Below are positions 41,128-45,340 of a stretch of 50,290 nucleotides of DNA, piece by piece. The stretch is taken from NCBI GenBank assembly GCA_023267375.1, contig JAHFNJ010000007.1:1-50290 (forward strand), given 5' to 3'. Origin of the DNA: Candidatus Nomurabacteria bacterium. Lineage in GTDB: Bacteria > Patescibacteriota > Minisyncoccia > Phycocordibacterales > UBA9973. The first letter of the stretch is position 1. Each line of letters begins with the position of its first letter. The position numbers and the translations under genes were made by a program. The notes under the pieces are model-generated. The model was not told the origin of the DNA. It saw only the letters and a list, made by a program, of their open reading frames with translations, and searched no databases.

Positions 41128-41199
41128 GGCTCCGTCGTTCAATGGATAGGACGTAACTTTGCGGAAGTTATGATGCAGGTTCGATTCCTGCCGGAGTCA
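41128..41199 (+). tRNA. tRNA-Arg (anticodon GCG)
   Basis: GGCTCCG/CGGAGTC acceptor, TAACT-TTGCGGA-AGTTA anticodon arm, GCAGG-TTCGATT-CCTGC T-arm; CCA not encoded. Confidence 0.92.
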
Positions 41200-41409
41200 C
41201 TAGTACAAAAATGAGCCGTCTCGAAAGAGGCGGCCATTTTTGTTTAGTGACTCCGAGCGAGCAAACTGCTTTGCTCGCGTGCAGGAATCGAACAGCGGAG
41301 TCATGTTTTGCAAGCTTGCAAAACAGACGAGCTGGTGCCCAGACAAAACTTTTTGACGAAAAAGTTTTAGTCGAGGGCGATAAGCGTACTCGCGGTCCTG
41401 CCGGAGTCA
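41200..41409 (+). repeat. tRNA-Arg-linked mirror element
   Basis: Inverted copy of the tRNA 3' half (41245-41255 plus 41281-41293) split by a 25-nt hairpin; 51-nt core 41294-41344; sense copy TCCTGCCGGAGTCA at 41396-41409. Confidence 0.85.
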
Positions 41410-41418
41410 TCAGGGCTT

Positions 41419-41446
41419 CAAAAAAGCGCCCTCGGGCGCTTTTTTG
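41419..41446. terminator. Bidirectional terminator
   Basis: CAAAAAAGCGCC-ctcg-GGCGCTTTTTTG. Confidence 0.85.
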
Positions 41447-41460
41447 GATTCTATTTAAAT

Positions 41461-41925
41461 TTAAAATCCTAAGAAATCCATGATTCGATGTGACGCAGGT
41501 TCATCCATTTCTCGTTCTTTCATTTTTTTAAGAAGTGAGGTCTGGACCCGTTTCCAGTCAGCATTTCCTAGGGGGAGTGTGACGAGAGGCATAAACATGC
41601 GATCTGTTTCGAGGATAAGCTTGGGTTTGCGGTCTTTTGCAACAATTGCAAAACTTTTTATATGTTTGTAGTCATACGTGTAATGACTCACTTTCACACC
41701 ACGTTCAGTTATTTCAAAAGTCACTATTTGTGGCTTGCGGACACTATAGACAACAAGAAGTGAGACAGCAACCACAATGAAAACAGCAAAAAGAAAATTG
41801 CCGTAGATGATCGAAGCAACAACGGTACAAATTCCGATAATCCCAAGTGCCCAAAACCAGTCGGGCGACTTTGGTCGATCCTCATATTCAAGTGCTTCCC
41901 AGCTGATATGATCTCCAAATTGCAT
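41461..41925 (-). CDS. Membrane protein, DUF5673-like
   Basis: ISWEALEYEDRPKSPDWFW, two TM segments, then a PH-like soluble domain. Confidence 0.65.
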   Translation of the reverse strand: MQFGDHISWEALEYEDRPKSPDWFWALGIIGICTVVASIIYGNFLFAVFIVVAVSLLVVYSVRKPQIVTFEITERGVKVSHYTYDYKHIKSFAIVAKDRKPKLILETDRMFMPLVTLPLGNADWKRVQTSLLKKMKEREMDEPASHRIMDFLGF

Positions 41926-42107
41926 ATGTATATGATATCAAACTCTGTTTGCAAATACTAACGATAGCGTCTTTGTAAAATAAAATATATTCACTCGTAC
42001 CTTATCCACACGACAGGTAGGCCTTCGTCGTCTAGGGGAGTATACTTTTACTATCACTCTATGAAACATAGGGTCCGCTCGTTTTACAAATTAATTGGAA
42101 ATATAGT

Positions 42108-42377
42108 ATGAAAACAAATAACACCAAGGTGGCTTTCCTCACTATAATAATCCTCGCAATAGTTTCTGTCGCAGGGTTGATTCTAAAGAATAATAAAGAT
42201 CAGCTGGCTACAGCTGTTTCTCCTGGTTATAAACCTACCTCTCTTTGTGATATCGGGGAATGCGAGACAGAAGGAAATTATAAAACCGCCAAAAATAAAG
42301 ATACTAAGCTAGAAGAAAGACGCCAGAAAATGGAAGCAGAGGTCGCCGCTTATTTGCTTAAGAAAAATAACAAGTAA
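42108..42377 (+). CDS. Small exported protein resembling an M43 protease pro-domain
   Basis: N-terminal TM/signal, then CETE and helical KDTKLEERRQKMEAEVAAYL; ends 4 nt before the protease gene. Confidence 0.6.
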   Translation: MKTNNTKVAFLTIIILAIVSVAGLILKNNKDQLATAVSPGYKPTSLCDIGECETEGNYKTAKNKDTKLEERRQKMEAEVAAYLLKKNNK

Positions 42378-42381
42378 ACTT

Positions 42382-44442
42382 ATGAGTAAGAAAAAAATCA
42401 TTACTGGATTCGTTGGTGTACTCATTGCAGTAGTCGTTTTATCTAGCTTTTCACTTTCGCCAAATGGAAAAGGGGTTGCATCTGCTGCAGATGTTGTTAC
42501 AATCCCGGTTGTTTTTCATGTCTTATACAACTTACCAGAGCAAAATATTTCTGATGCACAGATTAATTCGCAGATTGACGCACTCAACGAAAACTTCAAT
42601 GCAGAAAATCCTGACGTAAGTACAGTCCCTGTTCCTTTTATGTCTCTGGTTGGACGTTCAGGGATTCGGTTTGTGTTAGCAAAGCGTGATCCACAGGGTA
42701 ATCCTACGAATGGGATTATTCGTAAATACACGACGATTACTTCTTTCTCGAGTGATGGAGCAGCCTGTTTTAGTAGTCTTGGGGGAGATGATGCATGGCC
42801 CCATGATCAGTATCTCAATATTTGGGTGGTTAATAAATCCGGAGCGGCAGGGTATTCTGCATATCCTTGGAGTGGGAGTGCCGCAACCGATGGTGTAATT
42901 GTCGGCTACAACTATGTTGGCAAGGTTGGTACTTTTACAAACAATTGGAATTATCAAAAAGGGCGAACCGTAGTTCATGAAGTCGGCCATTGGCTGGGGC
43001 TCGTACACATCTGGGGTGATGCTACGTGCGGCAGTGACCTAGTGGCTGATACACCAACACATGAGAAAGCCAATGGATCTTGTCCTGCGTTTCCTCATGT
43101 ATCTATGTGTGCAGGAAGTGCTCCAAACGGCGATATGTTTATGAATTATATGGACTATACAAATGACGATTGTAGGACGATGTTTTCTCAAGGGCAGGTT
43201 GATCGTATGTTGGGCTTTTTGAACACAACTCGAGCAGGCTTGCTTACATCCTTGGGTGGCGTTGCCCCGTCTGGTTCAGATATCACTCCGCCTATCATTT
43301 CATCGGTTGCTGCATCAAATATCACCACGTCTGGTGCCACTATTACGTTCTCTACAGATGAACCATCTGATACCCAAATGCTCTATGGTATGGCTTCGGG
43401 AAACTATACTACTACTGTTCCAACCAATTCTACGCCCGTGACTTCGCATAGTATTGTACTCAGCGGTCTTACTGCTGGTACCAAGTACTACTATGTCGTC
43501 AAATCAAAAGATATGGCTGGAAATGTTGCAGTATCCTCGGAGTATTCATTTACGACGGTTTCCTTAAATGACACAACTGCTCCAGCGACGACATTTTCTG
43601 CTGCTACTGGTACATGGACAAATACTTCTGTCTTGCGCACTCTTACCTGCATCGACTCAGGTTCTGGCTGCAAAATTACCTACTGGACATTTGTTGTAAA
43701 TGGTTCAGCTTGTCCAGCAGCTACACTTTCTGGAACAGGGTACACTACTGGTACTACTGCAACATGGAGTACTCAAGGACAGTGGCGACTCTGTGCTTAC
43801 TCAATAGATAATGTTAATAATGTAGAAAATCCTAAATTCACCGAACCATTCAATATTGATACAAAACCGCCAACAACCGCAGTAAATGCTCCCGCTAATA
43901 ACTCAACTGTATCAGGGAAGACCGTCGCACTCACTGTGGCCGCGGCGGATGCTCTTTCAGGAGTTAAAACGATTCAGATTACCGTTGATGGTGTAAACGT
44001 TGGGGCGCCAGGAACTTCCAGCCCCTACACTGTTTACTGGGACAGCACGACTGCTTCAAATGCAACACATATTGTGTCGCTTAAAGCGACAGATGTAGCA
44101 GGGAACACAAATTCGATTGGGGCGTCAGCCTCTGTCACGGTCTCAAATGCATCTTCGGCCATCCCGCCAGTAGTGACTATTACGAGTCCAACAGGGAGTA
44201 CGATTCCGACCAAAGGGAACACTACTCTCTCATTTACTGCGACAGCTACCACGACCAACTCAAGTATTTCCTATATACAACTTTCTATAAATAACTCTCT
44301 TCAAAAAACCTGCCCCAATGTTACTACGTGTACGTATACGTGGAGAACAAAAGATATTCTTCCGGGGTCATATACGCTCAAAGCAGTAGCTGTTGATGCT
44401 AAAAATGTGGCTGGGCAAGCAACGAAAGTGCTGACAAAATAA
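42382..44442 (+). CDS. Secreted M43 (pappalysin/ulilysin-family) zinc metalloprotease with Fn3 and Ig-like domains
   Basis: TIPVVFHV, HEVGHWLGLVHIWGD, Met-turn NYMDY, Fn3 (YYYVVKSKD.AGN), Ig-like repeats (D.AGN, W.T...G.YTL.AVA.D). Confidence 0.92.
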   Translation: MSKKKIITGFVGVLIAVVVLSSFSLSPNGKGVASAADVVTIPVVFHVLYNLPEQNISDAQINSQIDALNENFNAENPDVSTVPVPFMSLVGRSGIRFVLAKRDPQGNPTNGIIRKYTTITSFSSDGAACFSSLGGDDAWPHDQYLNIWVVNKSGAAGYSAYPWSGSAATDGVIVGYNYVGKVGTFTNNWNYQKGRTVVHEVGHWLGLVHIWGDATCGSDLVADTPTHEKANGSCPAFPHVSMCAGSAPNGDMFMNYMDYTNDDCRTMFSQGQVDRMLGFLNTTRAGLLTSLGGVAPSGSDITPPIISSVAASNITTSGATITFSTDEPSDTQMLYGMASGNYTTTVPTNSTPVTSHSIVLSGLTAGTKYYYVVKSKDMAGNVAVSSEYSFTTVSLNDTTAPATTFSAATGTWTNTSVLRTLTCIDSGSGCKITYWTFVVNGSACPAATLSGTGYTTGTTATWSTQGQWRLCAYSIDNVNNVENPKFTEPFNIDTKPPTTAVNAPANNSTVSGKTVALTVAAADALSGVKTIQITVDGVNVGAPGTSSPYTVYWDSTTASNATHIVSLKATDVAGNTNSIGASASVTVSNASSAIPPVVTITSPTGSTIPTKGNTTLSFTATATTTNSSISYIQLSINNSLQKTCPNVTTCTYTWRTKDILPGSYTLKAVAVDAKNVAGQATKVLTK

Positions 44443-44447
44443 AAATT

Positions 44448-44945
44448 TTACTTAGAAAATTTTCGGTAGATTGCGATCAGTTTTTTCTCTAATTGTTGCG
44501 GTGTTTTTTCTTCGTTTCTAAAAGACAGGTGAGGGAAGTCGCCAATACTCTCCCAGTTTTTCTGTATATATGTATCAAGCAGGGTGTGAGTGAAAAAGTG
44601 TCCTTTGCGGTTTTTTATTTGTGATAGATGTTTTGTTTTTGAAGTAGTTACTCGAATGAAAACAATATGTTTTTTAAATTTTTTTAAGAGAAAATTTCTC
44701 GATGTGCTATCTGGTAGGGAGTCAGTAATTGCACTCTCTTTTTTCAGAGACTTTAGATACTTTGCTATTCGGGTGAGTTTTTTGAGTCGGTCTTGTTTAG
44801 TGAATGTTCCTGCGGCAATTTTTTTCTTCTCTGTTGCAAGGAGGAGCGAATCGCCGTTAATATAAAAAACATCAGCCACTTTTGCGAATTTTTGTGCAAT
44901 GTAATCTTTCCCGACACCAGGGTATCCAAAAAACCAGTAGATCAT
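44448..44945 (-). CDS. P-loop kinase, gluconokinase/shikimate-kinase-like
   Basis: GYPGVGK Walker A, INGD, RKGHFF...LLD; start MIYWFFG at 44945. Confidence 0.65.
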   Translation of the reverse strand: MIYWFFGYPGVGKDYIAQKFAKVADVFYINGDSLLLATEKKKIAAGTFTKQDRLKKLTRIAKYLKSLKKESAITDSLPDSTSRNFLLKKFKKHIVFIRVTTSKTKHLSQIKNRKGHFFTHTLLDTYIQKNWESIGDFPHLSFRNEEKTPQQLEKKLIAIYRKFSK

Positions 44946-45065
44946 ACTGACAGGGTAGCATGAAAATGGAGGAATTAAAGAGATTCGCCCGCGACTAAAA
45001 AATCGCCGAAACAGGATGAGATTCTCCCCGTACCGGGGCAGTACAGGTTTCCGAAAAAATAATAC

Positions 45066-45253
45066 AGCGAGATTCGCCCGCGACTCTCGCCTCGTCGTCA
45101 CTCAGCTCGGTCTGGGCACCAGCTCATCTGTTTCGCAAGCTTGCGAAACATGATTCCGCTGTTCGAATCTCACACGCGAAGTGCGCAGGCACTTCGCTCG
45201 CCTCCGCAAACAAAAATGGCCCCGACCAAAGTCGGAGCTCATTTTTGTATTTG
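45066..45253 (-). repeat. tRNA-Ser-linked mirror element
   Basis: Inverted copy of the tRNA 3' half (45161-45173 plus 45199-45210) split by a 25-nt hairpin; 51-nt core 45110-45160; short distal sense copy 45069-45076. Confidence 0.85.
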
Positions 45254-45340
45254 CGGAGGCGGTGAGATTCGAACTCACGGTCCACTTTCATGGACGACAG
45301 TTTTCAAGACTGTTGCCTTAAACCACTCAGCCACACCTCC
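45254..45340 (-). tRNA. tRNA-Ser (anticodon TGA)
   Basis: GGAGGTG/CGCCTCC acceptor, G discriminator, ACAGT-CTTGAAA-ACTGT anticodon arm, long variable arm; CCA not encoded. Confidence 0.95.

Follow-up and report, generated by a model that had tools for sequence, protein, structure and literature searches.

A probable split cysteine-switch zymogen of an M43B zinc protease in a Candidatus Nomurabacteria genome

The latency of metzincin zymogens is taught as intramolecular, with the pro-segment carried in the chain that it blocks and removed by cleavage. In the ulilysin/mirolysin-type (M43B) zinc proteases, this takes the form of a cysteine switch in cis, as seen in promirolysin (PDB 6R7U/6R7V) and pro-ulilysin (PDB 8CD8/8CDB) (Guevara et al. 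2020, PMC6949598; PMC8259862). In the promirolysin crystal structure, C23 sits on the zinc, S25 on the upper-rim strand, E26 on the Tyr switch and N28 on Asp238; W46 lies in a pocket where it touches Asp231 of the zinc motif, and E47 forms a double salt bridge with Arg302 (PMC6949598). Here we describe two adjacent genes of an uncultivated groundwater bacterium, Candidatus Nomurabacteria bacterium (assembly GCA_023267375.1, contig JAHFNJ010000007.1, positions 1 to 50,290; this whole stretch of 50,290 nucleotides is termed the window), namely a small open reading frame (ORF) and, directly downstream, an M43B protease. The two genes are probably a naturally split cysteine-switch zymogen, a reading to which we give a probability of roughly 0.6 from their sequences. 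The catalytic domain belongs to the same family as promirolysin and pro-ulilysin (~50% identity), and the C-terminal part of the small ORF aligns without gaps with the 34-residue pro-segment of promirolysin, keeping the Cys, the Ser/Thr-Glu-x-Asn stretch, the helix-linker-helix arrangement and the (W/I/M)-Glu pair. Unlike in these two zymogens, the predicted pro-segment of the window has a gene and an export signal to itself and is not covalently joined to the enzyme, so that activation cleavage would be unneeded; it also lacks the S1' Arg and the Gly following the Cys, and has an extra Cys47.

The cis cysteine switch is thus the closest mechanism, whereas the closest gene logic is that of the potempin system of Tannerella forsythia. 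A potempin is encoded by a small ORF at ≤5 bp upstream of a peptidase gene, is co-transcribed with it, exported and membrane-anchored, and blocks the linked peptidase specifically (PMC9890683). One of them, PotD, targets mirolysin, an M43B enzyme (Ksiazek et al. 2022/23, PMC9890683). The spacer of the window, at 4 nt, is within this distance. Potempins are lipoproteins of 98–132 residues that fold into a β-barrel (oligonucleotide/oligosaccharide-binding or eight-stranded) and inhibit through their loops in a substrate-like or bilobal mode (PMC9890683), whereas the AlphaFold2 (AF2) model of the window protein is all-helical, with an ectodomain of ~53–62 residues. In addition, the peptidases linked to potempins keep their cis pro-segments, to which potempins are unrelated; the window protein, by contrast, appears homologous to a pro-segment and stands in place of the missing cis copy. 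No lipobox of the type described in PMC9890683 was found in the small ORF, which has no Cys after the hydrophobic core (..SVAGLILKNNKDQ..) and whose first Cys is residue 47. Comparison of the small ORF with the potempin PDB entries gave no sequence match at E ≤ 10, and Foldseek gave none.

Separate genes for pro-peptide homologues that inhibit a peptidase in trans are known from other systems. SpeB and Spi of Streptococcus pyogenes form such a pair of a peptidase and a free-standing propeptide-like inhibitor. Further cases are the I29 inhibitors CTLA-2alpha, crammer and BCPI (PMC4089206, PMC3551606) and the I9 subtilisin propeptide-like inhibitors, such as the Plasmodium SUB1 inhibitor (PMC6993865). 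The window shares this gene arrangement, inhibition being what we infer for it, but differs in that the targets in these systems are cysteine (C1, C10) and serine (S8) peptidases that still carry their own pro-peptides, whereas the window enzyme has lost its cis copy. Our literature search returned no free-standing pro-segment inhibitor for a metzincin or a cysteine switch, no split or trans-encoded metallopeptidase pro-domain, and no propeptide-like inhibitor whose enzyme had lost its own pro-segment. A different intermolecular equivalent of a pro-domain is Lif/LipH of Pseudomonas and Burkholderia, which is membrane-anchored through an N-terminal transmembrane helix and shares its operon with a secreted enzyme lacking a pro-peptide; it is a lipase chaperone that caps no active-site metal. 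The small ORF is unrelated to Lif/LipH in sequence and fold, and has no Pfam match.

The protease is a Peptidase_M43 member by Pfam (PF05572, E 1.3e-18, above the cut-off), and its residues 32–289 match the PDB sequences of ulilysin and mirolysin at ~50% identity, with E values of 1e-70 to 4e-68. Its motifs align with those of ulilysin and are intact: the zinc motif H199-E-V-G-H203-W-L-G206-L-V-H209 (42976–43008), followed by M254-NYMD-Y259-TN-D262 (43144–43167), which contains the Met-turn N255–D258, the Tyr-switch Y259 and the S1' Asp262, and by Arg275 within GQVDRM. Roles were placed on these motifs by the text of PMC6949598. The alignment with pro-ulilysin (8CDB) starts at protease residue 32, inside the signal peptide, and pairs ..GVASA|ADVVTIPVVFHV of the protease with ..AISR|MEIVKIPVVVHV of pro-ulilysin, that is, with its activation site and mature N-terminus. 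Because this alignment puts the signal peptide directly on the mature start, the protease has no pro-segment in cis, and its signal peptide abuts the mature enzyme, as an earlier note on this DNA had read from the letters alone. The predicted cut at A-S-A|A would leave an N-terminus of ADVVTIPVV... The open frame cannot be extended upstream to recover a pro-segment, since it meets a stop at ~42310 and has no ATG, GTG or TTG ahead of the ATG at 42382.

Relatives of this enzyme carry the missing segment in cis. Two samples were taken: the best 80 related loci (L001–L080) from species-representative genomes, mostly of Bacteroidota plus one Methanosarcinaceae metagenome-assembled genome, and 120 protein-database relatives. 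A Cys-bearing cis pro-segment is found in 77 of the 80 loci (71 standard, six with a variant Cys motif); two of the remaining three are cut by contig ends and the third (L037) is frameshifted. The standard loci have a signal peptide, then R-x-C-G-T-M-E..D-P-x-L..R-M..I-E..T..F/W-I.. and then V-I-T-I-P-V-V-V-H-V, with a median pro-segment length of 48 residues. Among the 120 proteins, P0017 (L086, 998–4081) is the only one whose signal peptide leads straight into the mature start. The zinc motifs of its two tandem catalytic-like domains read T-H-L-V-G-H-W and T-H-M-V-G-H-W, neither of which keeps the catalytic Glu, and the protein appears to be a pseudo-peptidase that lacks a pro-segment and ends in a type IX secretion system (T9SS) tail. 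With the catalytic Glu gone, P0017 was ruled out as a second pro-less active M43B enzyme; the region upstream of it is full of short repeats and holds no pro-segment-like ORF.

In the catalytic-domain tree, the window enzyme lies inside the G-type clade (28 members, support 1.0) and branches at its base, and the other 27 members all have cis pro-segments. Most G-type relatives (P0003–P0028) consist of a lipoprotein-type signal (lipobox ..SC[KQ]KE), a linker of ~25 residues, the pro-segment and the enzyme; P0012 and P0025, for example, have no lipobox. In most members the pro-segment falls 6 residues short of the usual length in the family, and most lack the S1'-anchoring Arg; the standard spacing of the family is retained in the window and in P0012, which is basal in the clade. 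As judged from this domain order, activation of a G-type lipoprotein would leave the pro-segment lipid-anchored on the producer cell and let the enzyme leave. The small protein of the window, with its hydrophobic helix, a linker of ~15–25 residues and the pro-segment, would resemble such a post-activation remnant.

The small ORF matches the pro-segments by profile. A hidden Markov model (HMM) of the 71 cis pro-segments, built with the small ORF left out, matches its residues 52–87 with 14.3 bits and an E value of 2e-6, the small ORF being a single pre-specified target. It also ranks first among the 916 six-frame stop-to-stop ORFs of the window (E 0.0019; runner-up 8.1 bits), and its score is reached by none of 5000 shuffles of its C-terminal half that keep the composition. 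A second HMM of 86 N-type pro-segments from the protein collection, whose overlap with the genome-locus set was not checked, gives 11.7 bits and E 1.5e-5, once more with 0/5000 shuffles reaching the score. The alignment to M43 pro-domains that the earlier note had suggested as a check therefore produced a match. In a MAFFT alignment with 29 pro-segments, the small ORF is ungapped and the column of Cys52 alone is invariant, with ~20% identity between the small ORF and any pro-segment.

Superposition on the promirolysin sequence from the PDB alignment, RTC23GSELNMEQIRRTEPLKYQRITDW46E47NQIKLHS|R55, leaves no gaps in the small ORF, GEC52ETEGNYKTAKNKDTKLEERRQKM75E76AEVAAYLLKKNNK. It pairs C23 of mirolysin with C52, S25 with T54, E26 with E55, N28 with N57, R42 with R71, W46 with M75, E47 with E76 and I50 with V79, and all eight mirolysin positions are interface residues (PMC6949598). 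The M75–E76 pair stands at +23/+24 from Cys52, the same spacing as W46–E47 in mirolysin, and the position of the mirolysin activation bond falls 6 residues short of the end of the small ORF. Cys52 (42261–42263) is the putative zinc cap; it is followed by T54, E55 and N57 in an extended segment, and the second helix carries R71, M75–E76 (42330–42335), V79, Y82 and L83. The AF2 model has helices at residues 4–35, 54–64 and 68–88, separated by a loop (36–53) and a break (65–67), with a predicted local distance difference test score (pLDDT) above 90 over residues 60–88; the latter two helices and the break sit at the places of α1p, linker and α2p in mirolysin (29–35, 36 and 37–52). After its hydrophobic N-terminus the small ORF reads ..SLCDIGECETEGNYKTAKNKDTKLEERRQKMEAEVAAYLLKKNNK, and the sequence bears out the earlier description of an 89-residue gene 4 nt upstream, with a hydrophobic N-terminus of its own, then C-E-T-E and a helix. 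The 'CxT' named there as the switch motif agrees with the family consensus C-G-T and with C-E-T in the window; the literature calls the motif 'cysteine-glycine' (PMC6949598). Altogether, the small ORF is very likely homologous to the M43B pro-segment.

A residue pairing between the two genes was also found. Covariation was counted over 145 precursors (loci L001–L080, proteins P0003–P0121). With the zinc motif HExGHWL-N-L, the residue before the pro-segment helix Glu is I, V or L in 114 of 121 precursors; with HExGHWL-G-L it is Met in 19 of 24 by script, or 20 when P0012 is included. In mirolysin the pair is Asp and Trp (D231–W46), which are in contact. In the window, Gly206 of the protease (42997–42999) goes with Met75–Glu76 of the small ORF, which is the G-type pairing occurring in trans, and this Gly/Met combination fits a pro-segment that has been split off. 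No mention of such covariation between zinc motif and pro-segment (N with I/V/L, G with M, D with W) was found in the M43B literature consulted.

Several observations weigh against a split zymogen. The HMM of the G-type clade, to which the enzyme itself belongs, misses the small ORF, scoring it at −0.6 bits, which 392 of the 5000 shuffles also attain, probably because most pro-segments of this clade are 6 residues shorter, and the scores of the long-form profiles are modest (12–14 bits). The Arg that fills S1', two residues before the Cys, is absent, the window having Gly50 there, and so is the Gly after the Cys, Cys52 being followed by Glu (G-E-C-E); 4 of the 24 G-type relatives, as well as L001 and L045, likewise have C-E in place of C-G. 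Cys47 (42246–42248), five residues before Cys52 (C-D-I-G-E-C), has no counterpart in the pro-segments of the family, and could form a disulfide bond with Cys52 that masks the switch; it could also serve as a second metal ligand. The AF2 model is not independent evidence, because the pro-segment alignment was its input. Finally, the small ORF is an orphan that retrieved only itself in a word-based search and in phmmer against 1.84 billion representatives, and a profile search for other free-standing pro-segments gave three candidates, all frameshifted or partial: P0122 and P0124 were rejected as partial or garbled precursors, and P0123/L085 as a frameshift of a normal precursor. Searches of Pfam, NCBIfam and PDB sequences with the small ORF returned sub-threshold noise only (Oxidored_q6, YjdP, Hsp104), and Foldseek found no match for its AF2 model in the PDB.

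A rival reading is a chance likeness, in which the small ORF would be an unrelated membrane or secreted protein, or a potempin-style co-transcribed inhibitor that mimics a pro-segment. Low bit scores, the commonness of Lys/Glu-rich helices and the lack of a match by the G-clade profile, Pfam, NCBIfam, PDB and Foldseek are all in line with it. Chance, however, has to produce the E value of 2e-6 for one pre-specified target, the first rank among 916 ORFs and a score beyond 5000 shuffles, in an ungapped full-length alignment with the right spacing of 23 residues from the Cys to the (M)E; it has to supply the clade-specific Met that matches the Gly of the protease, and to do so just ahead of an M43B gene that is among the very few without a pro-segment. 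We therefore hold a chance likeness to be quite improbable.

The small ORF is gene-like in its codon usage, with a score of 0.300 compared to 0.331 ± 0.072 for the real genes of the contig, whereas off-frame chunks have a mean of −0.25 and none attains 0.300. This bears on the view that it is a relic of gene fission, descended from a signal and a pro-segment and now left over, so that the protease would be secreted active and the small protein would be roleless or unmade. A relic would agree with the lack of homologues that would show selection, with the loss of the S1'-anchoring Arg and the Cys-Gly motif, and with an identity of only ~20% to any pro-segment, and the existence of the pro-less homologue P0017 would lend it a precedent; yet that sole pro-less homologue seen is catalytically dead. 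Moreover, the small ORF is intact although the genome is A+T-rich and stops arise easily in it; it keeps its own start codon, its export signal and gene-like codons, the residues it retains are the ones through which the pro-segment of promirolysin touches the catalytic domain, and the 4-nt spacing suggests coupled expression. Taken together, these features make a relic unlikely.

The N-terminus of the small ORF has a hydropathy maximum of 2.99 over 15 residues and a possible signal-peptidase site, A-T-A|V (residues 34–36|37), and is possibly either a cleaved signal or a lasting anchor. Both export signals of the pair consist of a hydrophobic core of unusual length (19–20 residues) and then ~10 polar residues ending in A-x-A (ATA|V and ASA|A); the c-regions of other secreted proteins of the contig (9565, 11837, 21255) are shorter. 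An origin of the two signals as duplicates was rejected: BLASTP gave no alignment, and their similarity in DNA (61 of 146 columns identical, no significance test run) is that of the A+T-rich background only. Neither signal resembles any other ORF of the window.

These features bear on a third alternative, which accepts the homology but assigns the small protein another main role, as a membrane tether and/or a Lif-like folding chaperone and not a latency device. Its 19-residue hydrophobic helix is more anchor-like than a short signal h-region, and the protease has no anchor of its own at the C-terminus: the ~400 C-terminal residues form one fibronectin-III/purple-acid-phosphatase-N-like domain and bacterial Ig (Big_7) domains, and a domain scan of this end found neither an anchor nor a T9SS tail. 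In mirolysin, C23 mutants are less stable, which indicates that the pro-segment also stabilises the fold (PMC8259862). On the other hand, the Cys kept at the zinc-capping position argues for blockage of the active site, and the A-x-A site 10 residues past the hydrophobic core, placed as in the protease signal, would release the peptide; in any case, tethering and inhibition can coexist. A main role apart from latency seems improbable.

The layout itself is reproducible. Four more assemblies (L081–L084; three from ENA and one from Logan) show the same two genes, with 0–1 mismatches to the window across 1–8 kb and zero at the junction, and the layout also occurs in Logan contigs from three groundwater metagenome runs. 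A frameshift artefact is excluded by the agreement of the five assemblies and by the export signal that each product has of its own, in agreement with the argument of the earlier note that two independent signal sequences speak against a simple frameshift. That note had proposed to check the two-gene layout in relatives and reads: these four assemblies and the contigs of the three runs show it, and the relatives yielded no second true split. A programmed frameshift that fuses the two products was rejected, since a second hydrophobic segment would then separate the pro-segment from the catalytic domain and the protease would end on the wrong side of the membrane. True frameshifts look different: in L037 (2726–4728) and L085/P0123 (3501–6184), the pro-segment and the catalytic domain lie in different, overlapping frames that continue one precursor, without a second signal peptide. 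As judged from their sequences, these two are plain frameshifts (sequencing errors or pseudogenes), and automated screens for 'split' M43 genes must filter such cases.

The coordinates of the pair are collected in Table 1. It is flanked by one divergent and one convergent gene. A scan between the stop of the small ORF and the ATG of the protease found no terminator-like site, and we therefore take the pair as a putative two-gene operon in which translation is possibly coupled. There is a weak plus-strand hairpin within the small ORF (42201–42216), and a terminator-like site at 42351–42334 is on the minus strand. A promoter scan upstream of the small ORF did not find a convincing sigma-70 site. 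The divergent neighbour (41461–41925, minus strand) encodes 154 residues with two transmembrane helices and has sub-threshold matches to DUF5673 and DUF3093; this gene also adjoins the pair in L081 and L082. The pair and its two flanking genes lie between tRNA-Arg(GCG) and tRNA-Ser(UGA), at 41128–45340. The G+C content of this interval, 0.42–0.43, equals that of the rest of the window, so that composition gives no sign of recent transfer or of an island.

Table 1. Positions of the two genes and their parts in the window
Feature	Position	Strand	Basis or remark
Small ORF, 89 aa	42108..42377	+	ORF call; order: export signal/anchor, linker, predicted cysteine-switch pro-segment homologue
Export signal or membrane anchor, residues 1-37 (MKTNNTK + hydrophobic V8-L26)	42108..42218	+	Hydropathy, AF2
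Linker, residues 38-49 (SPGYKPTSLCDI), low confidence	42219..42254	+	AF2 loop 36-53, pLDDT 54-59
Predicted pro-segment homologue, residues 50-89	42255..42374	+	Pro-segment HMMs, MAFFT alignment, AF2 helices
TAA stop (42375-42377) and ACTT spacer (4 nt)	42375..42381	+	Sequence
M43B protease ORF, 686 aa	42382..44442	+	Frame differs from that of the small ORF
Protease signal peptide, residues 1-35 (MSKKK + hydrophobic I6-L25 + SPNGKGVASA)	42382..42486	+	Sequence, hydropathy
M43B catalytic domain, residues 36-290	42487..43251	+	PF05572, ulilysin/mirolysin matches
C-terminal non-catalytic part, residues 291-686	43252..44442	+	Pfam PF16656, PF17957, PF24893, PF00041

We propose that the ancestor of this pair had a signal or lipid anchor, a linker, a cysteine-switch pro-segment and a catalytic domain in one chain, like every active relative in our sample, and that gene fission at the junction of pro-segment and catalytic domain took place in a Patescibacteria lineage. 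The protease part would have gained its own signal peptide, so that signal peptidase would free an already 'mature' N-terminus. The upstream gene would have become a small exported protein, anchored or cut at A-T-A|V, with the pro-segment as its last ~38 residues. Both proteins would be made from one transcript, their co-expression being probable because of the 4-nt spacing, and would be exported separately. At the cell surface, the small protein may then dock in trans on the front of the catalytic domain, in the manner of the cis pro-segment of promirolysin: Cys52 would cap the catalytic zinc, T54, E55 and N57 would line the upper rim and the Tyr switch, and the helix with M75–E76 would pack against the Gly206 region of the zinc motif and Arg275. 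The enzyme would thereby be latent at the surface of its own cell, and probably also stabilised, because C23 mutants of mirolysin are less stable (PMC8259862). Its activity would follow from dissociation of the complex or from breakdown of the Lys/Arg-rich peptide, with no activation cleavage needed.

What sequence can say about the split zymogen proposed in the earlier note agrees with it: the protease has no cis segment, the relatives have one, the profile matches the small ORF, and the contact residues are kept. That the small protein inhibits or chaperones the protease in trans is in our estimate rather more probable than not, with its binding, its membrane topology and its co-transcription with the protease predicted along with it. 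More tentative, at somewhat below even odds, is the full claim that a free-standing, membrane-tethered cysteine-switch pro-segment inhibits, stabilises and docks a protease without a covalent zymogen architecture, which would make it the first natural case among metzincins. The split form is known so far from one lineage only, and because the case rests on this lineage and on reasoning from sequence, it should be taken at this stage as a lead, not as a result.

If the proposal is true, the short M43B pro-segment would be an autonomous binding module that can do without a covalent link in vivo, and a pro-segment could evolve into an inhibitor or chaperone dedicated to action in trans. Such a step is assumed for the propeptide-like inhibitors of cysteine and serine proteases, and is undocumented for the cysteine switch. 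Latency would then be achieved by non-covalent association at the producer's own surface, without an activation cleavage, and a natural peptide of ~40 residues would suffice for blocking an M43B (LysargiNase-type) enzyme in trans. The M43B family includes ulilysin, used in proteomics as the reagent LysargiNase, and mirolysin, a virulence factor in periodontal disease; a trans inhibitor of this size from nature would give a useful template for a reagent or an inhibitor. For the Patescibacteria, the pair may represent a possible way for an ultra-small cell to guard its own surface against a Lys/Arg-directed protease that it secretes.

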